Virus record (IMG/VR): IMGVR_UViG_2660238580_000002
Reading direction: 5' to 3' (one strand)
Length of the DNA: 64,000 nucleotides
Source of the DNA: a virus
Lineage: Duplodnaviria > Heunggongvirae > Uroviricota > Caudoviricetes
The position numbers and the translations under genes were made by a program. The notes below the pieces were generated by a model, which was not told the origin of the DNA, searched no databases, and saw only the letters and a program-made list of their open reading frames with translations. This document shows, piece by piece, positions 11,873 through 63,265 of the stretch (positions are counted from its first letter, which is position 1; every line of letters starts with the position of its first letter).

Positions 11873-12544
11873 TCAGCGACCAATCACCACAACCTGACCA
11901 CCGTCCCCTTCGTCTGCCGTGCTGATCTCCTGAGAAACCACGCGTGACCCCACGCGCATTTCCCCGTACAGAACAGGCAGAACATTGCCCTGGGCAACCA
12001 TGTTATCCAGTGAGGAGAAATAGGTGTTCTGCTTACCGTTATCCGTTGTCTGTGTACGGGGAGTTCTGGCTTTCGGTGCCAGCATCTGCGCCACACCACC
12101 GAACACCATACTGGCACCGAGAGAAAACAGGATGCCGGTCATACCACCGGCCCCAATGGCTGCCCCCCATGCTGCAAGGGTGGCTCCGGCGGTAAAGAAT
12201 GATCCGGCAATGGCGGCAGCCCCCAGGACAATCTGGATTACGCCACCTGACTTGGCCCCGGCGACTCTGGGAACAATATGAATCACAGCGCCATCAGGCA
12301 GAGTCTCATGTAACTGCGCCGTTAACCCGGACGTGCTGACGTCCCGCCCGGCAATCCGTACCTGATACCAGCCGTCGCTCAGTTTCTGACGAAACGCCGG
12401 GAGCTGTGTGGCCAGTGCCCGGATGGCTTCAGCCCCCGTTTTCACACGAAGGTCGATGCGGCGACCAAATCGTTGTAAATCCCCGTAAAGGCAGATGCGC
12501 GCCATGCCCGGTGACGCCAGAGGGAGTGTGTGCGTCGCTGCCAT
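11873..12544 (-). CDS. I: tail assembly protein I
   Basis: 223 aa; 672 nt equals lambda I; position between K and J. Confidence 0.85.
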   Translation of the reverse strand: MAATHTLPLASPGMARICLYGDLQRFGRRIDLRVKTGAEAIRALATQLPAFRQKLSDGWYQVRIAGRDVSTSGLTAQLHETLPDGAVIHIVPRVAGAKSGGVIQIVLGAAAIAGSFFTAGATLAAWGAAIGAGGMTGILFSLGASMVFGGVAQMLAPKARTPRTQTTDNGKQNTYFSSLDNMVAQGNVLPVLYGEMRVGSRVVSQEISTADEGDGGQVVVIGR

Positions 12545-20157: not shown

Positions 20158-20946
20158 TTACGCCAGTTGTACGGACACGAACGCATCAGGGTCAGCCAGC
20201 AGCATCAGCGGTGCTGACTGAATCATGGTGAACTCACGCGCCGGATCGCCGGTGGTCACCCAGTTTTTCGGGTAACGGGCAGAGGCGTTAATGCCTTCGC
20301 GCTGTGCGTCCGCATCCTGAATGCAGCCATAGGTGCGCAGACCGCGTGCCTGAGTGTTCCCCAGCACCATCGTGTTGTCCGGCAGGAAGTTCTTTTTGAC
20401 GCCGTTTTCCACGTACTGTCCGGAATACACGACGATGGCCACATCGCCATACATCCCCTTATAGGACACCGCTTTGCCCAGGTCTTTCACCGCTGTCTCC
20501 AGCTCGGAATTAGAGCCACGACGGGTATCCAGCTTCTCCTTGACGGCTTTGAAGGAACGGAACAGCGCCCAGCCTTTCGGATCGAACACGATGATATTCA
20601 CCACACCGCTGGCGTTCAGCGCGTAGGCTTCGATATCGTCGGTCGGGTCATACGTGGACTTGTCACGCTTGCTCCACTCCGTGCCGCCGGACTGCGTGAT
20701 GTTATTCTCCTCACTGCGGCCCATATCCACCTCAACCGGATCGAAGGCTTCACCGGTCATGGTGTATTTGCCCTTAAGCACGGCAGAAACTGCCTGCATC
20801 TCTTCGACCTGAGCAATGGCCAGCTCTTCGTCACGCATGTTCTGCATGATGATGCGACGGCGGCGGTAAGCCGGGTCCGCCAGATTCTGCGGATCTTCAT
20901 CCGGCAGGCGACGCAGGGTCATCTGCGGATTCACTTCATGCTTCGG
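20158..20946 (-). pseudogene. E: major capsid protein E, 3' fragment (codons ~82-341) cut off from its 5' part by island insertion
   Basis: Reads PKHEVNPQMTLRRLPDEDPQ...PDAFVSVQLA with no start codon; in-frame stop immediately upstream of PKH. Confidence 0.92.
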
Positions 20947-20948
20947 CT
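20939..20948. repeat. 10-bp direct repeat TGCTTCGGCT (island junction, putative att core)
   Basis: Identical 10-mer at 33376-33385; lies in E codons Lys-Pro-Lys-His. Confidence 0.8.
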
Positions 20949-21082
20949 ACATGAGTCAAATATGAAAGGATGTGAATGATTTGATTACGTTTTAGCTATA
21001 GAATTGAAATGGAAAATCCTTGAATGCAATACAACGTGCAATACATGGATGAAAACCATCACTCATTTAACAAGAGGAATCT

Positions 21083-21988
21083 ATGCGCTCACCCAACAGA
21101 ATGCATGAACGCTCAACATTTTATAAGTATATGTCGTTGAATACCGCGAAGATTGTTCTTGATTCATGCAGCCTTAGATGGAGTTCTCCGGTCCTATTTA
21201 ATGACCCTTTTGATGTTCCAAGAGAAGTTATGCCTGGTATTAACGAAATTAATATTGGCAAAGCTTTAGCCCGCAAGTTAATAGCGGAGTTGATTACCCC
21301 CAGAGAAGACATACAAAATTTAAACCCTAGAATTAGAACAATGCTAAGTGATTTCCAAAAGTCATTTCCTTTAGGCATACCCGCAGGATTAATTGAAAGA
21401 TTTCAAGAAATGGTAAACATTCCACCAGTTGGGATTGGCGCTCCTGCGGCAATACAAGAAATGAAAGATGTCTGGCGAGGAATGCTTAATAACAGAAGGA
21501 TTTTGTGTTTATCTGAGAGCCCTATAATCACTCCTATGTGGAATCACTATGCCGATAAATATAAAGGTATAGTTATCGAATTTGATTGTGTAGACTTTCT
21601 GGATAGCGCTTGGTTAATAGCCAAACCTATGAAATACACAGATAAAATGCCTCTAACTCACACTGCTGAAGGGATGGCCGAGTTGCTTTTCATGCCAGAC
21701 AATAAGTCAATTGAATATATCAATAATGAGATAATATTCATAAAAACAGAAGAATGGGCATATGAAAGAGAGTGGAGAATTTCAACCTACGCTAGGCCAA
21801 ATAGCACTGGTCAATATAGCGACTTAAAATTTCACCCTTTTGAGTTAAAATCTGTAATACTTGGTCCTCTTTTTGATGCCAGCGAGTTCGATGAAGTCGC
21901 ATCACTAGTTAAGATGTATCCAAGAGCGAAATTATTTAAAAGTTCATTTGGGAACGACAGAAAAATATCCATAGTACCACTACCTTAA
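21083..21988 (+). CDS. DUF2971-family protein
   Basis: 301 aa; N-terminal FYKYMSLNTAKIVLDSCSLRWSSPVLFNDPFD signature; GAGGA RBS upstream. Confidence 0.65.
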   Translation: MRSPNRMHERSTFYKYMSLNTAKIVLDSCSLRWSSPVLFNDPFDVPREVMPGINEINIGKALARKLIAELITPREDIQNLNPRIRTMLSDFQKSFPLGIPAGLIERFQEMVNIPPVGIGAPAAIQEMKDVWRGMLNNRRILCLSESPIITPMWNHYADKYKGIVIEFDCVDFLDSAWLIAKPMKYTDKMPLTHTAEGMAELLFMPDNKSIEYINNEIIFIKTEEWAYEREWRISTYARPNSTGQYSDLKFHPFELKSVILGPLFDASEFDEVASLVKMYPRAKLFKSSFGNDRKISIVPLP

Positions 21989-22094
21989 AAGGTCAAATGC
22001 TTTTGACAAATAAAATCTATCGCCAGTTTTACTGGCGACTTTTAAGCAACAAAGAACCACCTAAGCACTCTTCCTACCTATGGTTTCATTTGTT

Positions 22095-22646
22095 TTAACT
22101 TCGCTGATTATCCTTGATATACCTTTCAGCCATATCTGGAATGTTATCTGAGATCTGGTAAGCTCGAATAAATGCTTTACTGACCTCCATCTTAATGAAG
22201 TCCTGATACCGTTTTTCCATGCCAGGAAACTGTCGACAGATCGCAAGTGGAAGACTATCAATGATTGCTCCAACTTCCCCAGTTAATTTCGACAAGGCAT
22301 AAGTCGCAAATGCAGTGTCAATTACCTCACCTGTTTCGCTGGCATTCTTCAGTTCCTGTGCGTCGGCCTGCGCACGCGTAAGTCGATGGCGTTCGTACTC
22401 AATAGTCCCTGGCTGGAGATCTGCCTCGCTGGCCTGGCGCAGTTCTTCAACCTCCCGGCGCAGCTTTTCGTTCTCAATTTCAGCATCCCTTTCGGCATAC
22501 CATTTTATGACGGCGGCAGAGTCATAAAGCACCTCATTACCCTTGTCACCGCCTCGCAGAACGGGCATTCCCTGCTCCTGCTAGTTCTGAATGGTACGGA
22601 TACTCGCACCGAAAATGTCAGCCAGCTGCTTTTTGTTGGCTTCCAT
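22095..22646 (-). pseudogene. terminase small subunit Nu1-like gene with in-frame amber codon at codon 22
   Basis: MEANKKQLADIFGASIRTIQN-TAG-QEQGMPVL...; first ~100 aa near-identical to prophage Nu1, C-terminal ~80 aa divergent; TAG at 22581-22583 where helper has TGG. Confidence 0.8.
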
Positions 22647-22699
22647 TGTTCATTCCACGGACAAAACCAGAGAAAGGAAACGACAGAGGCCAAAAAGCC

Positions 22700-22860
22700 T
22701 GTTTTTAGCACCTGTCGTTTCCTTTCTTTTTAGGGGATGTTTTTAATAAAAACATTAAGTTACGGCGAAGAAGAACGGAAACGCCTTAAACAGGAAAATT
22801 TTCACAAATAGCGAAAACCCGCGCGCCTGACGCCCCGTAGCCTGTCAGATCGCCGGAAAG
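22700..22860 (-). other. island cos-like region (cosB-like, variant cosN 22824-22835, partial cosQ-side)
   Basis: Aligns base-by-base with prophage cos (39600-39790); 5 of 12 cosN positions differ (GGGCGTCAGGCG vs GGGCGGCGACCT). Confidence 0.7.
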
Positions 22861-22891
22861 GACCCGCCAGCCAGAGCGGGCCCTAATTTCA

Positions 22892-23275
22892 TCAACCAAT
22901 CAGCTTATAGCGACCATCCCGTGCATTGCGGCGTACACGCTCAATCTTGAGGCATAGCGCCGCATCTGGCTTTTTTGGGACAGGTACGCGGCAATATTCA
23001 GAAGCGCGAGGAATATTATTTATCCAGTCGATCACTTCACTTAAATACCAGGCCTTACGCCCTTCCGTAACCTGCACACGCTCCGGGAACTCTCCACTAG
23101 CCTCAAGGTTTAGCAGTGTACGCCGACTCAGGGTTGTAATTTCCATCACCTGATTCATATCAACAAGGCGCTCGCTTAAACACATTTTGTCAGCGATAGC
23201 TTTTAATTCCTCTACAGCTGGATTCGGGTACATCATTTCGGCAATTGGCTTAAGGTCATTGTAATCATTCTGCAT
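22892..23275 (-). CDS. AlpA/excisionase-family HTH protein
   Basis: 127-aa ORF; C-terminal half ITTLSRRTLLNLEASGEFPERVQVTEGRKAWYLSEVIDWI resembles AlpA-type HTH; true start may be internal. Confidence 0.5.
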   Translation of the reverse strand: MQNDYNDLKPIAEMMYPNPAVEELKAIADKMCLSERLVDMNQVMEITTLSRRTLLNLEASGEFPERVQVTEGRKAWYLSEVIDWINNIPRASEYCRVPVPKKPDAALCLKIERVRRNARDGRYKLIG

Positions 23276-23286
23276 TGTATCCCCCT

Positions 23287-23628
23287 TTACACACGAGCCA
23301 GCGGCTGAACAGAAATACCTGAGCCAACAAACGCTGCAATCTTTACTGACAGTTCTTTTACAGACTCAGGCCAGTTCAGAGCATCAACATTTAAGACACC
23401 TGTCTTATAGACCTGAGCCCGTGTTTTTTTCGCGGTGTCGATTTGTACAGCGGAAACATAAACCGCTTTACCTACGCTCGAACCATCCCATACCACCAGT
23501 GCACCTGTTGCATCTTCCTGCATCAGTGGCGTAAATGCAGGAATTACCCCTTTATTAGCTGAAAATATCCCCAGCGTAGTCACCAGTGCTTCAGTGCCAG
23601 CCATGAGTTCAGTGTAATGAGTAGCCAT
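23287..23628 (-). CDS. head decoration protein D homolog (island-encoded)
   Basis: 113 aa; shares PA-TPLM...VAWDG/VVWDG...YK-G...WPE...AF-G with lambda gpD. Confidence 0.6.
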   Translation of the reverse strand: MATHYTELMAGTEALVTTLGIFSANKGVIPAFTPLMQEDATGALVVWDGSSVGKAVYVSAVQIDTAKKTRAQVYKTGVLNVDALNWPESVKELSVKIAAFVGSGISVQPLARV

Positions 23629-23637
23629 TGCTCCCCC

Positions 23638-24678
23638 TTAGCCAATGCGAACGGTAACAAAACGATTGATGCGGGCCGGTATTGGCTGTGGTGCTGAATG
23701 TGTCTGCACATATTCAATAGCCGGATCACCAGGTACAATATAGTTTTTCGGTGCAAGTTCGGCTTTAGTCAGCCCCATTCGGATTAGCTCCGGATCCTGA
23801 ATACCGCCATAGGCGACAATCCCCTGAAGAGCCGTATTGCCAAGCACCATCAAATCAGGATCAAGGAAATGTTTTTCTGTTCCGTCCTCGTCGGTATAAC
23901 GCCCGCTGTAAACAACAATCGCAACATCGCCCATATACCCTTTAAAACTCACCGAATCACCAAGGTCTTTAAGGGCCGTTTCCAGTTCGGAATTAGAACC
24001 ACGACGGGTATCCAAAGCCTCTTTTATCGCTCTGAATGAACGGTATTTCTTCCATACATTACCACCCATAATGATGATATTAGTGACGCCCTCACTAAAT
24101 TCTGCGTAGCTCTCAATATCATCATTTGGATCAAAAGTTTCTTTATCCTTACTTGACCACTCAGTACCGCCAGACTGAGTGATGATATTTTGTGGTTTTA
24201 TATTCCAGTCCAGCTCATAACGTTCAATACCATCGCCCTCAATGATATTTTTCCCCGTTGTGATTGCCTGAACAGCAAGCCATTCAATACGTGCACGAAT
24301 AGCTTTAGCTTGATTTACAATCGCCTGTTTAACTTTAATATTACGCGCCCCAAAAGCATTGTATTGCTCAGGTGATACACCAGCAGGGCGCACAGCTAAC
24401 TTATTTGGATCAATGCTGCTTTTCGGCTTCATATAGCCTGGACGAATTGTTTTTGATTCGTACCCTTCGTCACGTGAAACTTTACTACCCACCATAGGAG
24501 AACAAAACGCTGCAATTGGGATATTTGGATCGTCGATTGTATCAAGAATAATATCGCGCGATTCAAACATTACCGAGCGAGTAAAAAACAAACTGGTAAA
24601 CAACGCATTTAGTTGTTTTTGTACATCTACAGCATTAACCACCTGTACAAGCTGGGTAGGCGAATATAAATCAACCAT
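23638..24678 (-). CDS. major capsid protein E homolog (island-encoded, diverged)
   Basis: 347 aa from MVDLYSPTQL (AAAGAGGA RBS); C-terminus ITQSGGTEWS...DTRRGSNSELETA...GDVAIVVYSG aligns with lambda gpE. Confidence 0.8.
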   Translation of the reverse strand: MVDLYSPTQLVQVVNAVDVQKQLNALFTSLFFTRSVMFESRDIILDTIDDPNIPIAAFCSPMVGSKVSRDEGYESKTIRPGYMKPKSSIDPNKLAVRPAGVSPEQYNAFGARNIKVKQAIVNQAKAIRARIEWLAVQAITTGKNIIEGDGIERYELDWNIKPQNIITQSGGTEWSSKDKETFDPNDDIESYAEFSEGVTNIIIMGGNVWKKYRSFRAIKEALDTRRGSNSELETALKDLGDSVSFKGYMGDVAIVVYSGRYTDEDGTEKHFLDPDLMVLGNTALQGIVAYGGIQDPELIRMGLTKAELAPKNYIVPGDPAIEYVQTHSAPQPIPARINRFVTVRIG

Positions 24679-24963
24679 ACACATCCTCTTTGCATTCATT
24701 AAAAATAATTGTGGATATATGCTATCACCAATATTTGTCATGCGAATACATGCAACCGAGTGCAATGTTGTATAAAGTTTTGGGATGACAACTTCAGCGC
24801 GGATAATTAGTGTTAATATATTCACTCCCTTTGGTCGGGATTTATGTAGCATGCCGGAAAATTTATTTTTTCCGGCCTTTTTTATTGGCAATATTTAAAA
24901 CGGAATATCATCTCCCCATTGCTCATTATCTCCCACTGGTGGATGGCTTCCTTGCTGATCTGC

Positions 24964-25344
24964 CTATTGTTTTGCTCTGTTCAGTGCGTCAGTAGCCTGA
25001 CCCTGTTGACCTTTTTTGCCGCCCGGTCGCACCGTTCGCGCACTGATTACGCTGTCTGCGATAACCTGCCAGCCCTGCCGCGTTTCACCGTTCTGTCCAG
25101 TCCACTGGCTCACCTGCATGTTACCCGCCACGCTCAGGAGTTCGCCTTTGTGATGCTTTGCCAGCGCATCGGCTTGTCTGCCAAACGCCAGCACAGATAA
25201 CCACATCGTCGCCGTTCCGTCATCTGCCTGGCTGCATGGCAAAGATACCGCCATCCGTGCCAGTGTCATGGGTGTTCCCTTGCTGGTATGTTTTACCTGT
25301 GGGTCGTCCACCAGCCGCCCGTAAGCTGCTATTTGCGCCGTCAT
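24964..25344 (-). CDS. single-stranded DNA-binding protein (OB-fold, SSB-like)
   Basis: 126 aa with SSB-like pattern GRLVDDPQV...WLSVLAFGRQAD...KGELLSVAGNMQVSQW. Confidence 0.6.
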   Translation of the reverse strand: MTAQIAAYGRLVDDPQVKHTSKGTPMTLARMAVSLPCSQADDGTATMWLSVLAFGRQADALAKHHKGELLSVAGNMQVSQWTGQNGETRQGWQVIADSVISARTVRPGGKKGQQGQATDALNRAKQ

Positions 25345-25355
25345 GCTGCCTGCTC

Positions 25356-25598
25356 TCAGGACTTAATATTGATGGTTGTCACTTCCTCCGCTTCGGCAAT
25401 CTCCCGTTCGGTCAGCGTGGCAAAGTTTGCAGCCGCCGTTGTCATGAATGCGCTTATCAGTTCGGGATGTGCTTTCGCGTATCCTTCCCCGGCGTTGCGG
25501 TCTATTGCCTTAATCGCCACCCTTAGCCAGTGTTCAGCCATATCAAGGGCGCGGTAATGTGGCTTTATATGTTTGTTCAGTTTTCCTGATGTGTGCAT
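25356..25598 (-). CDS. hypothetical protein
   Basis: 80-aa ORF immediately downstream of iteron region. Confidence 0.4.
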   Translation of the reverse strand: MHTSGKLNKHIKPHYRALDMAEHWLRVAIKAIDRNAGEGYAKAHPELISAFMTTAAANFATLTEREIAEAEEVTTINIKS

Positions 25599-25643
25599 TT
25601 TTATTTTTACCCCCTCGTTTAAAAAGTTTTTTGTGCACCACCA

Positions 25644-25876
25644 CCTTGTCTACCTTGTCTACCTGATTAGTTATCAGGCCAGTAATGGCGCGGGTTTCAG
25701 AGAGGTAGACAGCCCCAAATAGCTGTCTACCTCATCTCTACCCGTCTCCTTACCTGTCTACAAAAATGGGTAGATAAGGTAGATAACAGGTAGACAGTGA
25801 AAAATAGTTATCTACCTGCATTAATACATTGAAATAAAAGTATTTTATTTCAGTCAGGTAGACAAGGTAGATAACC
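25644..25876. repeat. iteron cluster (GGTAGACA/GGTAGATA and complement TGTCTACC), putative island replication origin
   Basis: More than 10 copies of an 8-11 bp motif in both orientations, AT-rich, directly upstream of primase gene. Confidence 0.75.
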
Positions 25877-25887
25877 ATTGCCATTTT

Positions 25888-27639
25888 TTATAAAAACGCA
25901 TCGCAATCATCAGTAGTCGTTGCGTTGGTCTGAGTGACTCCCTTAACTTTTCGCGTAATATATTCATATCCGTAAACTTTCGCCGCTGACCTCATAGCCT
26001 TTCCGAACTCATTCACGCTCAAACATTTCCCCTTTCCTGTATATGCCATGAAGGCCATATAGACACGGTAAAGGCTGTTTCTGGTCGTGTACTTCACGGT
26101 GTCACCACCACCGCCCATCATTAGCCCACGAGCTTCCTCCAGAAACTCCAGCGCCGCGCAAAGCTCAACAACCGGATCCGTTTGCTGCTTTATTGCCAGA
26201 GCTTCATCACCGTCACGCTGTTCCAGTAATAAAGCCCGTGCCTTTTCAGGGTCAGCAAAATTAGCCAGCAAGCGGCGGATAATTACGGGGATTTCTGCCG
26301 CTATCTTTTCCGGTAATTCCTTGTCTTTTTCGTCCTCCCTTACAATGTTGTCGAACCGGAAAATCACCCGACGGCGTGACACACCTCCGGCCCGTTCGGT
26401 AAAGATCATCGGGTCGTTATTGGTTGCCAGTACCACCGCCCTTATTATCGTCGTGAATCGCTTCTCATATTTCGGGTTAATTTCAACGGGATCGCCTCCC
26501 GTGATTTTCTTGATGCCCGTGCCTTCCCCCGTATATTTCGGCTGATCGGCAAGGACGATAAGACGACTCCCGACAACCTGCGCGCGCCCTCCTGCATCAT
26601 CGAGTGATGTCATCTCTGCGCTTACGGTGTTCTGTTTGCCAGCAAGCAGGGTGGCAATATGAGTAAATGTGCTCTTTCCGCTTCCCCCGTCTCCGGTGGC
26701 CTCAATGAACATCTGCCAGTCGTAGCGGTTCGCCATAATCATGTATAACGCGGCACATATACGCATCATCTTGCGCGGGTCTTTTCCTGCAGCATGTTCA
26801 AGCCATTTATGGAAATTTGGCGCATTATCGCGGATGTTTTCCCCTGCTACTGGTGGCGTGTACTCAATACCATTGTGCGTGGTGCTCCAGTGCTCCGGCG
26901 AGTGCGGAGAAAATTCCCCCGTTTTCAGATTAAGCACACCATTAGTGAACGGTAGCAAATCACCGGACGGCTCCCCCATGGGGGCGGCAATAACTTTTAA
27001 CGCTTCCACGGCGTTATTGATTACGCGCTTGCTGAACGTGGCCCTGTGCTCTGAATAGATCGCCACCATTTCGCGGCTCAGCTCCATTGTGCTGACCGGA
27101 CACCATACCCCGCCGCGCCATACGTGGACGATTTCACTTTCTGCATGAACACAAACACCATCAAAGCGATCGGCAAGTAGTTGTGCCCGCTCACTGTCTG
27201 CCATCTGTGAAAGTTGCGCCTTTTGCTTCGTCGGAAGATTAAGCACCAGGCTTTCCCCACGCTCGCATTCCTCTTTGAGTCGCGGCAACTGGTCGGATAA
27301 ATCCACTGGGCTGGTGTCAGTAATCCCCGCGTATTCGTGTACGGTCTTCACTCCAGCCACAGCCAGTAACGTAACAATCTGCGTCATGCTGTGCTCTGTG
27401 ATATGTCCTGCGCGGTAAACACGCACACACTGACGATCTTCATCAATGATCCGGTAATCGGTGATGTTTTTCAGTTGCTCATCAGCCAACACGACAGGCG
27501 GCACATCGTCGGCGGCAATATGTTTACCCGCCCATTCCTGCCACTCTTTCGCATGGCTCCACGCATCACTACCTGCAAAGATGATTACCTCTGTCAGTCT
27601 GTCGCGTGGCTGTTTTTTTAAGTTCGGTGCCAGTTTCAT
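25888..27639 (-). CDS. P4-family primase/helicase (Pri-Rep-like replication protein)
   Basis: 583 aa; Walker A GDGGSGKST in C-terminal NTPase domain; adjacent to iterons. Confidence 0.75.
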   Translation of the reverse strand: MKLAPNLKKQPRDRLTEVIIFAGSDAWSHAKEWQEWAGKHIAADDVPPVVLADEQLKNITDYRIIDEDRQCVRVYRAGHITEHSMTQIVTLLAVAGVKTVHEYAGITDTSPVDLSDQLPRLKEECERGESLVLNLPTKQKAQLSQMADSERAQLLADRFDGVCVHAESEIVHVWRGGVWCPVSTMELSREMVAIYSEHRATFSKRVINNAVEALKVIAAPMGEPSGDLLPFTNGVLNLKTGEFSPHSPEHWSTTHNGIEYTPPVAGENIRDNAPNFHKWLEHAAGKDPRKMMRICAALYMIMANRYDWQMFIEATGDGGSGKSTFTHIATLLAGKQNTVSAEMTSLDDAGGRAQVVGSRLIVLADQPKYTGEGTGIKKITGGDPVEINPKYEKRFTTIIRAVVLATNNDPMIFTERAGGVSRRRVIFRFDNIVREDEKDKELPEKIAAEIPVIIRRLLANFADPEKARALLLEQRDGDEALAIKQQTDPVVELCAALEFLEEARGLMMGGGGDTVKYTTRNSLYRVYMAFMAYTGKGKCLSVNEFGKAMRSAAKVYGYEYITRKVKGVTQTNATTTDDCDAFL

Positions 27640-27935
27640 TTTTTGCCCCTGAATGCGTTAATCATGCTTTTCATTTTCTGGATGTTTCCCCGCGCTTTTT
27701 CCCTGCTGATGGGCTTACTGCGGGGTGCGGCATATACCAGGGAAAAATCACGCCGGAACTGATAAACAGGCATCACGCAGTCATAGCTATACCCCTCACG
27801 ACGGTAAGTGATGCGCCGTTCTGCCACGCCTTTAATCGTTACCGTGCCGCCGTATTTATCGCGGTAAATATCGCCGTTCATAAATTCAGGCCGAGCGGGG
27901 CCGCTGGCAATAAAGCCAGAATTTTTCATTTCCAT
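27636..27935 (-). CDS. hypothetical protein
   Basis: 99-aa ORF, stop overlaps primase start. Confidence 0.4.
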   Translation of the reverse strand: MEMKNSGFIASGPARPEFMNGDIYRDKYGGTVTIKGVAERRITYRREGYSYDCVMPVYQFRRDFSLVYAAPRSKPISREKARGNIQKMKSMINAFRGKK

Positions 27936-27952
27936 ATTATTTATTCCTCGAC

Positions 27953-28174
27953 TTAACTCGACTTATTTGATAGCAGGGCACTATTTATTGCGTCATTGAG
28001 TTTTTCTGCTGCTTCATCAATAAGTGACAACAGGCCATAAGCAATATTTGCATCTTCATTGTCATTTATGCAATCAAGCCACATATTTAATATTGCTTTT
28101 GCTGAATTATTTAAAGTTAATGAACTTTCTGCACATGCTAACAATTTAAAAAAGACTTCCCGTTCTGTATTCAT
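27953..28174 (-). CDS. hypothetical protein
   Basis: 73-aa ORF in island early region. Confidence 0.35.
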   Translation of the reverse strand: MNTEREVFFKLLACAESSLTLNNSAKAILNMWLDCINDNEDANIAYGLLSLIDEAAEKLNDAINSALLSNKSS

Positions 28175-28366
28175 TTAATCCCCCACCAGCTTACTTTCTT
28201 CCTCAATCAAAAAACTAGCGACACTTCCCGAAAGACGCGCCAGTAGGCTCGCCAGTGCGGATATATCAGCATCTGTAATTTTGTTCGGGTATACCTCAAG
28301 AAGGCGGCAAATAATTTCTGTCTGGTGCGCACGTTCAGCGGCTTCGTGTAATGTGATTTCCTGCAT
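28175..28366 (-). CDS. hypothetical protein
   Basis: 63-aa ORF in island early region. Confidence 0.35.
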   Translation of the reverse strand: MQEITLHEAAERAHQTEIICRLLEVYPNKITDADISALASLLARLSGSVASFLIEEESKLVGD

Positions 28367-28600
28367 TAATGCACCTCTTTTAATTCATACACTGCTGAAA
28401 TAATGACTTGTGATAAGCCATATTCTGATGATTCGCTTCTCACCGCAGCAATAGCCGTCTGAACATTAACAGCCTTCACGTTCTGAGCGATACCAATTGT
28501 GTGGCCTAGTGGGTTAACCGCACGAGCAAATACACGGAAGGTTTTAAGCACGGCATACTGAACCGCCCCGGGTTTCCTGGAGAGTGTTTTATCTGTGAAC

Positions 28601-29491
28601 TCAGGCTGCCAGATCATCGTTTCCGATGGAAGCATAATAAGCTTTTTCTGCTTCTGCCGGAGGAGTATGGCCCAGCCTTTCCAGCAATCGTCGATTGTTA
28701 TACCAGTCCACCCACGTGAGTGTGGCCAGTTCCACTTCTGCACGGTTTTTCCAGCTCTTACGGTGTATTACCTCCGCTTTGTAAAGACCATTGATGCTCT
28801 CCGCCATCGCGTTGTCATACGAGTCGCCTGTACTTCCTGTTGATGCCAGTAATCCGGCTTCCTTAAGCCGCTGTGTGTAGGCCAGCGATACATACTGAGA
28901 ACCTTTATCACTGTGATGGACCGTGCCGGACGGTCGACGGGCCCATAACGCCTGCTCCAGTGCATCCAGCACGAATGTCGTTTCCATGGACGATGAGACC
29001 CGCCACCCCACGATGTATCCGGCAAACACATCAATGATGAACGCCACATAGACGAAGCCCCGCCATGTGCTGACGTAAGTAAAATCAGCCACCCACAGCT
29101 GGTCAGGTCGTTCTGCCACGAACTGACGGTTTACGCGGTCGCCTGCGGCAACGGCTTTCCGGCTGATGGTCGTACGGACCTTTTTACCCCGGAGAACACC
29201 GGCAAGTCCCATAACCGCCATGAGACGTGCCACAGTGCATCTGGCCACTCTGATACCTTCCCGTAACAACTGACGCCAGACTTTACGCACACCGTATACC
29301 TTGTGATTTTCATCGTATACGCGCTGTATCTCTTTCTTCAGCCAGTCATCGCGCTGCGCACGGGCACTGCGTTTATCCGGATGATGTCGCTGTTGCTGAC
29401 AGTGGTAATACGTTGACGGGGCAATATGCAGTTCGCTGCATAGCGGTCCGACCCCGTACTGCTCACGCAGCTTATCCAGCAGTGGCATCAT
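28601..29491 (-). CDS. IS629 transposase OrfB (DDE integrase core)
   Basis: 296 aa, identical to copy at 61767-62657. Confidence 0.9.
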
Positions 29492-29814
29492 TTTTTCCAG
29501 AGGCGGTCGAACTCCGCCTTCGCAAAATAAGCGGAAGCCTGGCGAAGGATATCGTTACTGCGGCGCAGTTCACGATTTTCACGTTCCAGCTCTTTCAGAC
29601 GCTGACGTTCAGCGGTGGTGAGCCCTCCATCACCGCCCCCGGTATCCCGCTCATGCTGGCGAACCCAGACACGCAGAGTCTCCGGCGTACAGCCAATCTT
29701 TGGAGCAATGGAACAAATTGTCGCCCATTGTGAGTCATATTCGCTCTGACTTTCCAGAACCATACGGACTGCCCGTTGACGGACTTCGGGGGAAAAACGA
29801 GTATTTTTAGTCAT
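29488..29814 (-). CDS. IS629 transposase OrfA (HTH)
   Basis: 108 aa [30 protein letters not shown]. Confidence 0.9.
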
Positions 29815-29868
29815 CCTGTTTACCTCTTTCTCAGGAAGTTTAGTCTCCAGGATTCCCGGGGCGGTTCA

Positions 29869-30060
29869 TACCTCCTGACGAATACGGGCGGCAAATATCA
29901 TCACGCAGCCAGTTGGGGATTGTTGGCGGGCTTCCTGTTCGCTGGCGGCCTCGATGTGTATTACGCGTGGTTGTGCGGTGCTCAGGGCGATAAAACGCCA
30001 GATGTATTTATTCAGGTTGTGCGGGTCCCGCCCTTGCGGGTGTGTGGTATGATTTCTCAT
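29869..30060 (-). CDS. Icd-like cell division inhibitor family protein, 3' end truncated by IS629
   Basis: YIWRFIALSTAQPRVIHIEAASEQEARQQS...IFAARI resembles Icd-like small proteins; reading past the IS predicts loss of only 3 codons. Confidence 0.45.
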
Positions 30061-30198
30061 AGCTATCTCGATACTGTTGCTATCGTTGGTGGTTAGAAGC
30101 CCGTTGGTGTTCCTAGCGCCTTCGGGCTTTGCTTTTTTAAGTGCCTCCGTGTTAAGGTGGTCACCTAACAGTAAAAAGGCTAATTCAATAGGTGGTCA

Positions 30199-30391
30199 CT
30201 TGTCAACAATCAAACGCGATAAAAGTCCTAAGGGTGATGGGCAATCTCCACAATTCAGAATGCGAATTTCTCCAGAGCTAAAAGAGCAATTCGACAAAGA
30301 AGCGCAGAGCGACGGCATAAGCCTAGCCAACTGGCTTAAAGAATTAGGGCGCAAAGAGCTGCTACGGCGCGGTATTGAACCAAAAGGATAA
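30199..30391 (+). CDS. ribbon-helix-helix (Arc/CopG-like) DNA-binding protein
   Basis: C-terminal ISPELKEQFDKEAQSDGISLANWLKELGRKELL RHH pattern; start uncertain (TTG at 30199 with AGGTGG SD, or ATG at 30260). Confidence 0.5.
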
Positions 30392-30418
30392 GAGTAATTG
30401 AAGTCAAGGAGCTAACAC

Positions 30419-30775
30419 ATGAAATACGAATTCTTCGCAACAAGTAGCAGTAGTTTGGATGTATACATAGTCACTGTATCAAACGATTCTAGCTCGCTAA
30501 TCATGACTTGCAATTGTCCAGCAGGAAGTAAAGGTATTCTATGTAGACACCGTAAAGCTTTAATTACCGGAAAAATCCGTGGTATATTCACTCCCCCAAG
30601 AAGGAATAATCCCGAAAAGTTACAAGAAGCTATAAATTTAATAACCACATATGGCATAGATAAAACATTAAAGTTGTACACTGATGAGTTAGAACGAGCA
30701 GAACAGACTTGGATAAGTGTTCGCGATAATTTGAGAGCAATGATAAACGCTCTTGTTGAACCACCTAAATATTGA
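30419..30775 (+). CDS. small SWIM-type zinc-finger protein
   Basis: 118 aa with CNCPAGSKGILCRH (CxC...CxH); AAGGAG RBS upstream. Confidence 0.5.
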   Translation: MKYEFFATSSSSLDVYIVTVSNDSSSLIMTCNCPAGSKGILCRHRKALITGKIRGIFTPPRRNNPEKLQEAINLITTYGIDKTLKLYTDELERAEQTWISVRDNLRAMINALVEPPKY

Positions 30776-30906
30776 ACTGTTCACATTGCCTATCAGTCGA
30801 CAACCTCGTATTCTGATTAAGGCTAACTATATACTCACATTGGCGACCAATTCTGGTCGCCTTTATCCACCATTTTTATAACATCATAGATTAAAAGTGT
30901 TAATCC

Positions 30907-31737
30907 TTACCCCCTGAATGGAATTGATGAGGATTTAATTTCCACTGAACTAAATCCTTTTGAATCCAAGAACATTTTTATACCAGCCTCAATGAAATCA
31001 TAATCGTTTGTCGGGCCAATAGTAATACTTTTAATTGGTAACTTCCTATGATCTTTATTACCAATGATGATATAAGGGATGACACCATTATTATTTATTC
31101 TGAATTGCACATCTGGTATTAGTATGCGCGGAGTAAATACCAATCTAAATTCATTTTCTTCGATAAAACTAGGATGTTTAAAAAATGGGATGTATTTAGA
31201 TATAAATTGATACGTAGAGGCCATTGTTACAAAATGATCATTCTTTTCTTTAATATTAATACCATTACAAGAAAAAAACGCCCCCAACTCCTTACTCATC
31301 TTAGTAACATCGTTATTATTTGAATATATAACATCATGTGCAACACAATTTAAATAAATATTTTGAGAAAAGCTCACAAGTTCATCCGCATCAAACTCAA
31401 TGCAAACACCCTGTTTATTTCCGTAACCTCTCCACTGACTTAACTTATCGTTTTCCTTACAAAAAGAGATGCTATAAACATGTTTATCAATCCCTTTTTC
31501 TTTTTGTAACCTCCCTTTCTCATACATGTCAAGAGACTTGAGCAAAATAGTTTTCTTATCTTTTGGAATGATATTGTCATCAACTATTTTAATTGTATTT
31601 CGAAAGCATTCACATCCATGGTTAGACTCCTCTTTATCATTTAAGAAATATATGTTTGTAGCCCATAAAGAATTAGAGTCTAATATACCTTTCAAACCAA
31701 AAAGATCTGTATAATGAAATATAGCCACAATGCCCAC
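30907..31737 (-). CDS. DUF2971-like protein
   Basis: 276 aa; N-terminal IFHYTDLFGLKGILDSNSLWATNIYFLNDKEE resembles DUF2971 signature. Confidence 0.5.
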   Translation of the reverse strand: MGIVAIFHYTDLFGLKGILDSNSLWATNIYFLNDKEESNHGCECFRNTIKIVDDNIIPKDKKTILLKSLDMYEKGRLQKEKGIDKHVYSISFCKENDKLSQWRGYGNKQGVCIEFDADELVSFSQNIYLNCVAHDVIYSNNNDVTKMSKELGAFFSCNGINIKEKNDHFVTMASTYQFISKYIPFFKHPSFIEENEFRLVFTPRILIPDVQFRINNNGVIPYIIIGNKDHRKLPIKSITIGPTNDYDFIEAGIKMFLDSKGFSSVEIKSSSIPFRG

Positions 31738-31744
31738 CTAATAG

Positions 31745-31975
31745 TTAAGTTGTTTCCCACTCACCTCGAATCCATGCCTGCACTTCTGAAAGACGATATG
31801 CAACAGCAGTGGAACCAATCTTGATCCGCTTAGGAAATTTTCCTTCCTTCTCCAGCTTCCAGCGTGTGCTGTTCGCAAGAGTGGTTAGCTCCCGACATTC
31901 TTTCTCACGGATCATTCGGTCAATGTTAGGAATGTACTCCAGACCCTTTTTATCAACAATTGCCATTTTTTTCAT
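31745..31975 (-). CDS. alpA: AlpA-family transcriptional regulator
   Basis: 76 aa; TTLANSTRWKLEKEGKFPKRIKIGSTAVAYRLSEVQAWI AlpA-type HTH; immediately downstream of int. Confidence 0.75.
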   Translation of the reverse strand: MKKMAIVDKKGLEYIPNIDRMIREKECRELTTLANSTRWKLEKEGKFPKRIKIGSTAVAYRLSEVQAWIRGEWETT

Positions 31976-31976
31976 G

Positions 31977-33212
31977 TTAACCAGCCTTTTGTTTGAGGAT
32001 TGTCACTTTTGAATCAGCACCTGCGATGCTATTGAGATATGTAGTCCAGAGTTCCAGAGCATCCAGTTTTTTAGCCATAAACTTACTCCGGTTGTAAACA
32101 CCTGCCACGCCAGGTAGCGCATGGCCTAACAGTTGTTCTACTACATAAAATTCAACACCGAGATCACTTAGATGAGTAGATAGCGTTCTTCTAAGGTCGT
32201 GTAGTGACCATTGTTTTTCATGGCCCAAACGTTTACCGATTTTCCCCCCAATCTTGCTTACGCTTTCTCTAATTCGCAGACTTCCCAGCACATAACCAGT
32301 ATGTTTTGTCTCTTCGTGAACATCCGTTACCCACTGTCGTAGAATTTCAGGTACTGGTCTGACGATTTCAACACCGGTTTTTGAGTGTTCTTTTGGTACA
32401 GTCCAAACCCAACTTTCTAGATCCCATTCGCTCCATTCTGATAATCGGGCTTCACTCATTCGACATCCAAATACTGTACAAAGCACAAACATTTTTCGCG
32501 TGTATTCAGACATTAGTTTTAAATCAGGCTCGACAAAAATTGCCTTCCAGAGCTGGCCCAGTTCGGCTTCATCCAGAACCCGATCCCGCTTACCTGCAAT
32601 CTGCCCCACATCACTCATGCGCAAATCCTTTAAAGCATCACACGTCGCGTACTGGCGTACCCGACAAAAACGAAGAGCTAATTTAGTGTCAGAAAAAACA
32701 TACGCCGCCATAACTGGTGCATTACGTTTAATTCGGTCAAAACAGTCCAGCCATTCATATAGGTGAGTGTCATTTACGGGCAAATGACCGATATAGGGAA
32801 AGATATGCTTTCGAAATCTGCCAAGCGTTACAGCATGAGTTTTACGACGCACCTTACAGTAATTTTCATACCAGTAATTTAGTGCATCCTCCACTGTGAC
32901 CGGCTTTAAGCGTTCTTCAGCCTGAATCTTAATCTGGATACGCGGATCACGTTTGTCAGCCAACCAACCACGGCACTCGTCGCGCTTTTCTCTTGCCTGT
33001 TTGAGTGACATATCAGGATATTTACCCAACGTTAGCCAGACCGGAGCAGCCCGGCCACCTGCTAACCTGTAGAAGAAAACAAAGCTCACAGCCCCCTTAG
33101 TACTCACACGAATAGAAAGCCCCTTTCCATCAGCAATGGTGATCTGCTTTTCTCTGGGTTTCCCCAGATATCCTTTAAGCGCTTTGTCGCTCAGTTTGTT
33201 CTCGCCAGCCAT
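31977..33212 (-). CDS. int: P4-type tyrosine integrase
   Basis: Start MAGENKL; DUF4102-like arm domain; catalytic residues R (CRMSEARL), HDLRRT, Y (VAGVYNRS); adjacent to junction repeat. Confidence 0.9.
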   Translation of the reverse strand: MAGENKLSDKALKGYLGKPREKQITIADGKGLSIRVSTKGAVSFVFFYRLAGGRAAPVWLTLGKYPDMSLKQAREKRDECRGWLADKRDPRIQIKIQAEERLKPVTVEDALNYWYENYCKVRRKTHAVTLGRFRKHIFPYIGHLPVNDTHLYEWLDCFDRIKRNAPVMAAYVFSDTKLALRFCRVRQYATCDALKDLRMSDVGQIAGKRDRVLDEAELGQLWKAIFVEPDLKLMSEYTRKMFVLCTVFGCRMSEARLSEWSEWDLESWVWTVPKEHSKTGVEIVRPVPEILRQWVTDVHEETKHTGYVLGSLRIRESVSKIGGKIGKRLGHEKQWSLHDLRRTLSTHLSDLGVEFYVVEQLLGHALPGVAGVYNRSKFMAKKLDALELWTTYLNSIAGADSKVTILKQKAG

Positions 33213-33344
33213 TTTTAGCCCCAAAAAGCAATACAAGCTGCAATACAGAGATGATTGCAACACACAGATAACGAGGAAAATCCAGTGAAAGCGCCAGATA
33301 ATCTTATTCTTTATTATCAAAGAATTAAGTGTAAAAACCAGCAA

Positions 33345-33620
33345 CTACACGAAAGCCTCAGAAAGCCATGCTAAGTGCTTCGGCTTGACATATCCCGGCG
33401 TAAATTCAGAGGTGGAGCCGCCACGGGAACGGATAACCTCACCGGAAACAATCGGCGAAACGTACAGCGCCATGTTTACCAGTCCCGGAATTTGTGAGAG
33501 ATAGACTTTCTCCGTGGTGAAGGGATAGCTCTCACGGAAAAAGAGACACAGAAACAGCGGATCAAACTTAAATTTCTGCTCATTTGCCGCCAGCAGTTGG
33601 GCGGTTGTGTACATCGACAT
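33345..33620 (-). pseudogene. E: major capsid protein E, 5' fragment (codons 1-~83) fused to 9 island-derived codons
   Basis: MSMYTTAQLLAANEQKFKFDPLFL...EFTPGYVKPKH then LAWLSEAFV-stop from island sequence. Confidence 0.92.
33376..33385. repeat. 10-bp direct repeat TGCTTCGGCT (island junction, putative att core)
   Basis: Identical to 20939-20948; overlaps E codons Lys-Pro-Lys-His of the 5' fragment. Confidence 0.8.
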
Positions 33621-33675
33621 AAAAAAATCCCGTAAAAAAAGCCGCACAGGCGGCCTTTAGTGATGAAGGGTAAAG

Positions 33676-61672: not shown

Positions 61673-61766
61673 ATTCAGCATTTGTGCTTGTTCTGACAGT
61701 TTTTCTTGTTTCCGGAGAGCCAGTTGAACCGCCCCGGGTTTCCTGGAGAGTGTTTTATCTGTGAAC

Positions 61767-62657
61767 TCAGGCTGCCAGATCATCGTTTCCGATGGAAGCA
61801 TAATAAGCTTTTTCTGCTTCTGCCGGAGGAGTATGGCCCAGCCTTTCCAGCAATCGTCGATTGTTATACCAGTCCACCCACGTGAGTGTGGCCAGTTCCA
61901 CTTCTGCACGGTTTTTCCAGCTCTTACGGTGTATTACCTCCGCTTTGTAAAGACCATTGATGCTCTCCGCCATCGCGTTGTCATACGAGTCGCCTGTACT
62001 TCCTGTTGATGCCAGTAATCCGGCTTCCTTAAGCCGCTGTGTGTAGGCCAGCGATACATACTGAGAACCTTTATCACTGTGATGGACCGTGCCGGACGGT
62101 CGACGGGCCCATAACGCCTGCTCCAGTGCATCCAGCACGAATGTCGTTTCCATGGACGATGAGACCCGCCACCCCACGATGTATCCGGCAAACACATCAA
62201 TGATGAACGCCACATAGACGAAGCCCCGCCATGTGCTGACGTAAGTAAAATCAGCCACCCACAGCTGGTCAGGTCGTTCTGCCACGAACTGACGGTTTAC
62301 GCGGTCGCCTGCGGCAACGGCTTTCCGGCTGATGGTCGTACGGACCTTTTTACCCCGGAGAACACCGGCAAGTCCCATAACCGCCATGAGACGTGCCACA
62401 GTGCATCTGGCCACTCTGATACCTTCCCGTAACAACTGACGCCAGACTTTACGCACACCGTATACCTTGTGATTTTCATCGTATACGCGCTGTATCTCTT
62501 TCTTCAGCCAGTCATCGCGCTGCGCACGGGCACTGCGTTTATCCGGATGATGTCGCTGTTGCTGACAGTGGTAATACGTTGACGGGGCAATATGCAGTTC
62601 GCTGCATAGCGGTCCGACCCCGTACTGCTCACGCAGCTTATCCAGCAGTGGCATCAT
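61767..62657 (-). CDS. IS629 transposase OrfB
   Basis: 296 aa identical to copy 1. Confidence 0.9.
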
Positions 62658-62980
62658 TTTTTCCAGAGGCGGTCGAACTCCGCCTTCGCAAAATAAGCGG
62701 AAGCCTGGCGAAGGATATCGTTACTGCGGCGCAGTTCACGATTTTCACGTTCCAGCTCTTTCAGACGCTGACGTTCAGCGGTGGTGAGCCCTCCATCACC
62801 GCCCCCGGTATCCCGCTCATGCTGGCGAACCCAGACACGCAGAGTCTCCGGCGTACAGCCAATCTTTGGAGCAATGGAACAAATTGTCGCCCATTGTGAG
62901 TCATATTCGCTCTGACTTTCCAGAACCATACGGACTGCCCGTTGACGGACTTCGGGGGAAAAACGAGTATTTTTAGTCAT
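62654..62980 (-). CDS. IS629 transposase OrfA
   Basis: 108 aa identical to copy 1. Confidence 0.9.
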
Positions 62981-63265
62981 CCTGTTTACCTCTTTCTCAG
63001 GAAGTTTAGTCTCCAGGATTCCCGGGGCGGTTCAAGTTGATATTGCAGTCAGTGTTCACAGGACAATGCAGGAGTGTATGACTGCAGCAACCGAACAGAA
63101 AATTCCCGGTAACTGTTACCCGGTCGATAAAGTTATTCACCAGGATAATATCGAAATCCCGGCAGGTCTTTAAAACAGTTCCGTAATAAATATCCGGTTT
63201 CATTCTTATATGCCAGCAATGGCAGGGATTTGTTCATCCTTAAATCTGTCATGAGGTTAAAACAA

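Follow-up and report, generated by a model that had tools for sequence, protein, structure and literature searches.

An Arc-like repressor candidate and its putative operators at the probable control junction of a satellite island embedded in an Escherichia coli prophage

The segment between positions 29,869 and 30,775 of a 64,000-nucleotide stretch assigned to a tailed phage (IMG/VR record IMGVR_UViG_2660238580_000002; "the window" below denotes that whole stretch) is probably the control and immunity junction of a helper-embedded phage-inducible chromosomal island (PICI), a reading to which we give a probability of roughly 60%. An original prediction, made from the letters of the sequence, had placed three small open reading frames (ORFs) here, a minus-strand Icd-like gene facing plus-strand genes for a ribbon-helix-helix (RHH) DNA-binding protein and a 118-aa protein with a SWIM-type CxC...CxH motif, and had read their layout as the repressor and derepression switch of a satellite. 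All three genes are present. In our analysis the two facing genes and the spacer between them make up a conserved candidate switch, headed by a small Arc-like protein that would act on two putative operators, and the SWIM gene falls outside it. The features of the segment are as follows.

29866-30060, minus strand: Icd-like gene, 64 aa, homologue of P4 Kil by profile, first gene of the leftward replication operon
30045-30053, plus strand: candidate extended -10 element, TGgTATGAT, inside Icd codons 3-6, proposed for a hypothetical rightward transcript
30061-30095, minus strand: leader of the Icd-like gene including its Shine-Dalgarno sequence, 35 nt, conserved in an alignment of 57 unique leaders
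30096-30130, plus strand: covarying hairpin, terminator- or attenuator-like, followed by TTTGCTTTTTT to 30138
30155-30166: putative operator O1, a 12-bp pseudo-palindrome AGGTG-GT-CACCT sharing an exact 10-bp repeat with O2
30190-30199: putative operator O2, AGGTGGTCAC, ending one base before the TTG and doubling as the Shine-Dalgarno sequence of the RHH gene
30200-30391, plus strand: Arc-like RHH repressor gene, 63 aa, TTG start
30419-30775, plus strand: SWIM zinc-finger gene, 118 aa, 27 nt after the RHH gene, with AAGGAG (30405-30410) 8 nt before its ATG

Judged from sequence comparison and a structural model, the RHH gene is a real gene of the Arc-like class. The TTG at 30200 is the only start that preserves the beta-strand and has AGGTGG 4 nt upstream, and homologues start with ATG or TTG at the same codon. 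Taken as a single sequence, the protein matches PHROG 228 'Arc-like repressor' weakly (1.2e-6), and a profile of 17 RHH alleles aligns P22 Arc over its full length (E=2.6e-4). The AlphaFold model (predicted local distance difference test, pLDDT, 81) has helices at residues 25-37 and 42-56 after an extended segment, in which DSSP called no strand. A Foldseek search of the PDB with this model returned Arc as the best match (1myl_A, probability 1.00, template modelling (TM) score 0.89, root-mean-square deviation 0.8 A), followed by AmrZ, CopG and RHH antitoxins, and all but one or two of the 50 listed matches were RHH proteins. Both the architecture that defines the class, a strand and two helices, and a relation to a characterised member were found, and the earlier assignment to DNA-binding RHH proteins holds on these grounds.

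Homologues of the RHH protein (n=55, 63-64 aa) occur across Enterobacterales. With an Icd-like alignment as anchor, three loci were retrieved from genome contigs and 80 from viral contigs; each of the 80 IMG/VR loci, the closest of 396 hits, has an RHH gene divergent from and facing the Icd-like gene, with 33 distinct alleles among them. The same layout is found in E. coli O157 and other strains, Klebsiella, Proteus and Dickeya, and 46 complete E. coli genomes have the three-gene module of the window, annotated or conserved, with 97-100% identity. Many RHH-type genes at this position are named 'YlcI/YnfO family' by the NCBI annotation pipeline PGAP. The window allele does not match the corresponding model, PF13132 (YlcI/YnfO, DUF3950), which is matched by three of 17 same-position alleles, down to 2.7e-21; the alleles nevertheless form a mosaic series that joins the window type to DUF3950, with intermediates sharing 'GIEPKG' or 'RRKAKE' tails. 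With Pfam HicB the window protein scores 20.3 bits, below the cut-off of 21, and over the RHH part only. A HicB identity was considered and discarded on this score, the lack of a HicB N-terminal domain, and the lack of a HicA gene in the window or in more than 80 related loci.

The main argument that the RHH protein binds at this place is the co-variation, across genera, of the putative operators with the strand of the protein. The 139-bp spacer between the two facing genes carries AGGTGGTCAC twice, 35 bp apart, as an exact 10-bp repeat; the motif is found nowhere else in the island and has one further match in the window, at 4801, within chance expectation. Most RHH alleles come with a repeat of their own, 10-13 bp long, usually palindromic and present in two or three copies in the intergenic region (for example GTGTTGAACAC, TGTGCGCACA, GGTAATTACC, AGGTGTCAGCCAC and CTGGATTCCAGTA); for a few alleles the exact-repeat scan was empty, and inverted or imperfect copies were seen by eye. 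The window-type beta-strand 'SPQFRMRI' goes together with two copies of AGGTG-nn-CAC at exactly 35 bp, the second abutting the start codon. In Proteus mirabilis and Dickeya chrysanthemi, whose islands have different integrases and primases and a diverged spacer, the strand SPQFRMR is accompanied by two copies of AGGTGACCAC, again with 35-bp spacing and against a TTG start. From these pairings we infer that the RHH protein binds O1 and O2. In the longer spacers of YlcI-type alleles a leftward promoter, TTGACG-17-TAAATT, was read by eye with an operator inside its own spacer, as was a -10 element of the RHH gene (TATACT) followed by another operator. Hand-picked -10/-35 candidates for the window-type allele were weak, and we do not claim them.

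The gene on the other side of the spacer is an Icd-like gene, as had been proposed: its product matches NCBIfam NF033153 'phage_ICD_like' with E=7.3e-20 and 70.8 bits against a cut-off of 25. The same model matches P4 in the kil region, at the C-terminal end of the 'cI ORF' (7.8e-21, 73.9 bits), so that by profile comparison the Icd-like protein is a homologue of P4 Kil; this homology explains the 'transcriptional repressor' labels of the PHROGs that match it. A tblastn search of the Icd-like protein against phage records gave a single match, and the P4 link came from the NCBIfam model instead. The leftward operon runs from the Icd-like/Kil gene through small ORFs and a DUF4222 gene to the primase. 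Intact versions of the Icd-like protein, 67 aa long, are found in the near-identical islands of loci L001 and L002. Its leader is the part of the region that matches most widely across E. coli genomes and the most conserved of the non-coding stretches. The Shine-Dalgarno sequence of the leader (30065-30069) reads GAGAT in the window and L001, and GAGGT in most of the 57 unique leaders. A GC-rich hairpin, CCCGC-cctt-GCGGG, lies within Icd codons 8-12 (30027-30040), where synonymous sites are near-invariant among 55 unique sequences, which suggests a constraint beyond coding.

The genome context is that of a satellite. An island of about 12.4 kb is inserted in gene E, the major capsid gene of a lambdoid E. 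coli prophage, and it carries int, alpA and primase in that order, co-oriented with the prophage late gene, as in helper-embedded Gram-negative PICIs. Its limits are given by the following features.

20158-20934 and 33345-33647: fragments of the capsid gene E
20939 and 33376 (starts): 10-bp att core TGCTTCGGCT; the island spans 20939-33385

The island codes for int, alpA, a DUF2971 protein, the three genes of the segment, small ORFs, DUF4222, a D5/P4-type primase and SSB, for E- and D-like head proteins of its own, and for an AlpA-like regulator, a truncated Nu1 and a further DUF2971 protein.

These observations can be arranged into a working model. A dimer of the Arc-like protein would bind the two pseudo-palindromic operators, 30155-30166 and 30190-30199, which are flanked by the start codon of the RHH gene on one side and, on the other, by the leader of the leftward operon running from the Icd-like/Kil gene to the primase; binding would autoregulate the RHH unit, possibly together with SWIM, and would hold the replication operon off in the quiescent satellite. 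A hairpin RNA made from the plus strand might add antisense or attenuation control over the Icd leader or the RHH leader. Induction would consist of upstream transcription that overrides the block, either AlpA-dependent (PMC6092414) or, in the embedded state, by read-through from helper late transcription (suggested in PMC10111431). The SWIM gene would have been placed behind the repressor for expression in the quiescent state, much as rexAB lies behind cI in lambda, and its product might interfere with other phages. The binding of DNA, the promoters acted upon, the antisense RNA, the route of induction and the role of SWIM are the conjectural parts of this scheme.

Several points weigh against it. 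A consensus promoter scan of 29800-31000 found no sigma-70-like promoter on either strand of 30061-30199. Compared singly, the RHH sequence resembles Arc weakly (phmmer E=0.66), and no alignment of the two proteins was obtained with BLASTP. Homologues of the RHH protein carry the NCBI label 'toxin-antitoxin system HicB family antitoxin'. The IMG/VR loci, chosen as the closest hits, are not a random sample of PICIs. Finally, the induction of Gram-negative PICIs has been explained by the activator AlpA, with no repressor reported (PMC6092414); the same study describes transcription in one direction, leaves it unclear whether there is a global repressor, and calls the contrast with Gram-positive islands 'a mystery'.

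The switch reading of the original prediction thus stood in part. A repressor-type layout is upheld for the RHH gene, the operators and the Icd-like gene, which keep their arrangement in 80 of 80 loci and in other genera, and it fails for the SWIM gene, which occupies a variable slot and has homologues where no RHH gene is found; for the derepression half no mechanism emerged from any result. Three observations were not part of that prediction: the homology of the Icd-like protein with P4 Kil, the covarying hairpin of the spacer, and an insertion sequence (IS) that cuts the operon, which is described below.

The hairpin is the second conserved element of the spacer. Among 24 variants, compensatory changes were found in six of its ten pairs and 92.5% of cells were paired, a result equalled by none of 500 shuffles; 40 of the 240 cells are G-U on the plus strand. 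Over 48 variants its mean folding free energy is -27.0 kcal/mol on the plus strand and -19.9 kcal/mol on the minus strand. In Proteus the corresponding values are -27.3 and -14.2 with an unrelated stem sequence, and the hairpin is also kept, again in a different sequence, in Dickeya. The covariation and the plus-strand bias together argue that the structure acts in an RNA of the RHH direction, antisense to the Icd leader. A possible start for such an RNA is the candidate extended -10 element: of the 55 unique related sequences with this Icd N-terminus, 52 contain TGGTATGAT, and a TAnnnT hexamer recurs at the same distance, -13 to -19, in four unrelated Icd N-terminal variants. As a hypothesis, the hairpin RNA could be an antisense RNA of about 80 nt over the Icd ribosome site, or else the RHH mRNA's 5' part, carrying an attenuator.

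The same evidence bears on an alternative in which control is mainly RNA-based, the hairpin RNA being an immunity factor like P22 sar, P1 C4 or P4 CI and the RHH protein merely tuning its own expression and that of the cargo. The covarying, plus-strand-biased stem with a T-rich tract after it, the -10-like hexamer kept in the first Icd codons through four unrelated N-terminal variants, and the exceptional conservation of the Icd leader all speak for it; however, the hairpin matches no Rfam family, the T-tract is weak in many alleles, and the promoter is a mere consensus match within coding sequence. We consider this alternative unlikely, and it is compatible with the model in which the Arc-like protein represses the operon.

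The SWIM gene corresponds to its first description in motif and ribosome-binding site. Its product scores 23.8 bits against Pfam PF04434 (cut-off 19.6), with the motif C31-x-C33...C42-x-H44, whose four residues are invariant in the alignment, and matches phrog_13130 at 2.5e-81. The gene is probably co-transcribed with the RHH gene. Close homologues are few; a profile search extended the family to 180 cluster representatives, nearly all of them full-length at 105-125 aa. The model (pLDDT 86) shows a three-stranded sheet with a zinc knuckle and a long helical hairpin, for which Foldseek found no meaningful fold match in the PDB. Two further features define the surroundings of the gene.

30392-31753: variable cargo slot, from the RHH stop to the alpA stop, holding SWIM (plus strand) and a DUF2971 gene (30907-31737, minus strand)
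30842-30861, plus strand: hairpin GGCGACC-aattct-GGTCGCC and a T-rich tract after it, lying between SWIM and the DUF2971 gene convergent with it, read by eye

The hairpin at 30842-30861 is likely the end of the RHH-SWIM unit; a terminator scan of 29800-31000 did not report it. The limits of the slot are sharp, similarity to other islands stopping at 30387-30393 and resuming at 31754-31757. Behind a window-type RHH gene the slot contains SWIM, either of two other unrelated proteins of about 115 aa, a membrane protein, or nothing. Conversely, SWIM homologues are found behind other RHH alleles in PICIs (the Klebsiella RHH partner of SWIM is a DUF3950 protein); 31 nt 3' of an S24 CI-type repressor gene in prophage L096 (112 aa; 1237-2338), where rexAB sits in lambda; in a lambdoid early region, on the opposite strand; and in a Mu-like tail cluster. 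An accessory gene whose expression does not depend on lytic operons is distributed in this way, and by comparison of loci these contexts support the view that SWIM is an interchangeable cargo gene outside the conserved switch.

The position of SWIM might instead mean that it is a working partner of the switch, a co-repressor, an anti-repressor or a sensor of a helper protein that modulates the RHH protein. Its probable co-transcription with the RHH gene, the repeated occurrence of its homologues right behind repressors (RHH in PICIs, S24 CI in a prophage) and the standing of the SWIM domain as a known protein and DNA interaction module (Pfam PF04434) all fit such a role. Yet identical or near-identical RHH genes and operators occur without SWIM in L003, L088, Proteus and Dickeya, unrelated genes fill the slot in other islands, and SWIM is also found far from any repressor, in the tail-gene cluster, all of which makes a partnership improbable.

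Alternatively, RHH and SWIM could form a type II toxin-antitoxin or abortive-infection pair, an autoregulating antitoxin followed by a small toxin. The order of the genes and their 27-nt gap are those of such pairs, the RHH homologues bear the HicB antitoxin name and a weak Pfam HicB match, SWIM recurs behind five different RHH alleles, and it has a weak match (3.4e-5) to the PADLOC candidate system PDC-S62. In most islands, however, including those of Proteus and Dickeya, the RHH gene stands alone with no downstream partner; the partner of the window-type RHH gene is variable or absent; the 63-aa RHH protein lacks a C-terminal extension for toxin binding; HicA is missing and the protein scores under the Pfam threshold for HicB; and SWIM homologues occur in prophages without any RHH gene. 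The pairing is non-obligate in both directions, which is not the obligate two-gene unit of type II systems, and we regard this explanation as distinctly improbable.

The two DUF2971 genes of the island, 30907-31737 (minus strand) and 21083-21988 (plus strand), lie one in each of its variable zones; both match PADLOC PDC-S31, the copy at 21083-21988 with 2e-32, and in L002 a TIR-domain gene takes the place of the second. These zones are likely anti-phage cargo hotspots. A SWIM homologue of 175 aa (P0013) has an N-terminal transmembrane segment and an 'AKLY[DE].RK' motif, and this segment and motif resemble the N-terminus of an unrelated membrane protein found in place of SWIM in L004 (5344-5874) and L090; by this likeness, cargo genes of the slot seem to swap domains.

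The reality of the RHH gene needs weighing against a long frame on the other strand. Of 64 distinct relatives, 55 have an Icd-phase frame that is open for at least 100 codons upstream (median 293), and the other two frames stop within 10 codons; the open frame begins at or just past the stop of alpA or of a Bro-type gene. It reaches up to 586 open codons in loci L013-L091 (for example L014 1879-3204 and L029 1243-3204). The frame crosses the RHH gene antisense in one fixed phase in 32 of 33 alleles, with coinciding third codon positions, and no stop interrupts it over 29 of the 33 RHH alleles, compared with 26% when synonymous codons were shuffled. The only family matches of its products are to the C-terminal Icd-like part and, in L005, to an Ash segment, and by eye the products do not look protein-like in composition. 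The frame therefore seems, from its sequence, to be selected merely for staying open, like eta of P4. Substitutions cluster at third positions of the RHH gene (1/2/16; 10/8/33), which are shared with the antisense frame, and since these positions coincide the codon-position test cannot decide the strand. We judge the RHH gene real on other grounds: all loci examined have it intact, some have the antisense frame broken, the Arc fold and profile apply, putative operators co-vary with its alleles, and homologues extend across Enterobacterales. PGAP leaves the RHH gene uncalled in the near-identical records L001 and L002, with a minus-strand pseudogene at 12258-12524 instead, and in O157:H7 (L003 5010-5753) it calls an antisense 247-aa 'hypothetical protein' over it. 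That the RHH ORF is spurious and the region a decayed fragment of a minus-strand gene, as these two calls, the wide openness of the minus frame among relatives and the indecisive codon test might suggest, is very hard to credit when every locus has an intact RHH ORF but cargo-bearing islands, those of the window, L001 and L002 among them, have a broken minus frame, when the Arc fold and profile similarity and the co-varying operators belong to the plus strand, and when the long minus-strand products match nothing beyond Icd-like or Ash pieces.

The long frame invites comparison with the immunity region of P4, in which eta begins where vis stops and holds kil nested in the same phase (Forti et al. 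1999, as summarised in PMC10111431). The control segment of the island has the same position, after an alpA homologue (vis in P4) and before the primase operon; its Icd-like protein is a Kil homologue, and cargo-free relatives have an eta-like long ORF. The differences are that P4 immunity depends on the CI RNA with seqA and seqC, whereas the island has no C4/isrK-type RNA and carries an opposite-strand RHH gene with operators and hairpin within that frame, and that the long frame is broken in the window. There the Icd phase is open for only 45 codons upstream, interrupted by a TCA in O2 and by AT-rich cargo, and the Icd-like gene is not nested at the end of a long eta-like ORF. Rfam searches (E<=1) found no C4, isrK or c4-a1b1 in the window island or in eight RHH-bearing loci, and the P4 control was positive for C4 and isrK. 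With no P4-type immunity RNA found, the RHH gene, operators and hairpin occupy the position of the CI RNA of P4.

From this we draw a broader proposal, offered tentatively and at less than even odds: Gram-negative PICIs may, after all, be under a master repressor. It would be a very small Arc-like RHH protein with allele-specific operators, possibly helped by a cis-antisense RNA, in the slot that P4 gives to CI. In cargo-free islands its gene would be embedded antisense within an eta-like frame running from alpA to Icd/kil, and translation of that frame upon induction would shield the transcript and pass across the repressor gene.

In phage P22, the immI region comprises the two RHH repressors Mnt and Arc, the divergent promoters Pmnt and Pant, the sar antisense RNA and an antirepressor. 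The segment resembles it in having a small RHH repressor gene, with Arc nearest by fold and profile, divergent from the operon that it would control, in palindromic putative operators within a short intergenic region, and in a candidate short antisense RNA over the ribosome site of the first gene. It differs in having one RHH gene rather than two, operator sequences unrelated to those of P22, and an operon that leads from the Icd/Kil-like gene to a primase with no antirepressor. The Stl(Rpr)-Str switch of Staphylococcus aureus pathogenicity islands (SaPIs) and other Gram-positive PICIs likewise has a repressor-type gene facing the excision and replication operon, at the same position of the island map, between int and primase; the 63-aa RHH protein is, however, unrelated to Stl, and in Gram-negative PICIs AlpA-dependent activation is the established trigger (PMC6092414). 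With lambda cI-rexA-rexB the island shares the placing of SWIM directly behind a repressor gene and in the same direction (RHH here, S24 CI in prophage L096), although SWIM is unrelated to Rex.

The nearest described island is the '11capE' PICI type (Tommasini, Mageeney and Williams 2023, PMC10111431), similarly an island of about 12 kb in the lambdoid capsid gene E with its own E and D homologues, int, alpA, primase and a 10-bp att core, and the segment falls in what is there called the 'dynamic (Bro) zone'. That account differs in giving its named genes as unidirectional and in treating Bro proteins and immunity RNAs; the words 'SWIM' and 'ribbon' do not occur in it, and its gene-content section describes neither the RHH gene nor its operators. 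A literature search on roles of RHH, YlcI/YnfO or SWIM proteins in PICIs found nothing relevant. The parts are known families and the logic resembles that of P22 immI, P4 immunity and SaPI Stl/Str; what is new relative to the accessible literature is that Gram-negative PICIs have a conserved candidate repressor of the Arc-like type, with operators specific to the allele, and that its gene is embedded antisense in an apparently selected open frame. An Arc-like gene with its own operators, mostly overlooked or misannotated, is a concrete candidate for the missing Gram-negative PICI repressor. Its annotation can be corrected where it is left uncalled, displaced by the 247-aa antisense ORF (O157:H7) or named a HicB antitoxin, and the slot behind it, which exchanges accessory genes of the SWIM and DUF2971 type, is a useful place to seek new anti-phage genes.

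In the window itself the operon has been cut by the following element.

28559-29868: IS629-like element of the IS3 family, 1310 bp, with ends TGAACCGCCCCGGG and a 3-bp target duplication TAC

The call is based on comparison with L001, from which this element is absent, the junction sequences and an ALIL frameshift pseudoknot recognised by Rfam. The element is inserted 10 bp ahead of the normal Icd-like stop, so that the last three codons are swapped for the IS end, and neither the translationally coupled ORFs downstream nor the primase gene is any longer joined to the Icd-like gene. With the operon interrupted right behind the Icd-like gene, replication in this copy is probably no longer under the control of the switch. 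The island of L001 has an IS1 in its primase gene, which together with the IS629-like element here indicates that both copies are decaying.

Elsewhere the island has a Nu1-like small terminase gene that lacks its first 26 or so residues and, downstream of its head genes, the second AlpA-domain regulator (22095-22568 and 22892-23275); the Nu1-like gene is a pseudogene in the near-identical island L001. The Rfam 'int-alpA RNA' (RF02996) is present in the related island L023 (284-351, 48.4 bits) and absent from that of the window. A second IS629-like copy lies in the window at about 61700-63000.

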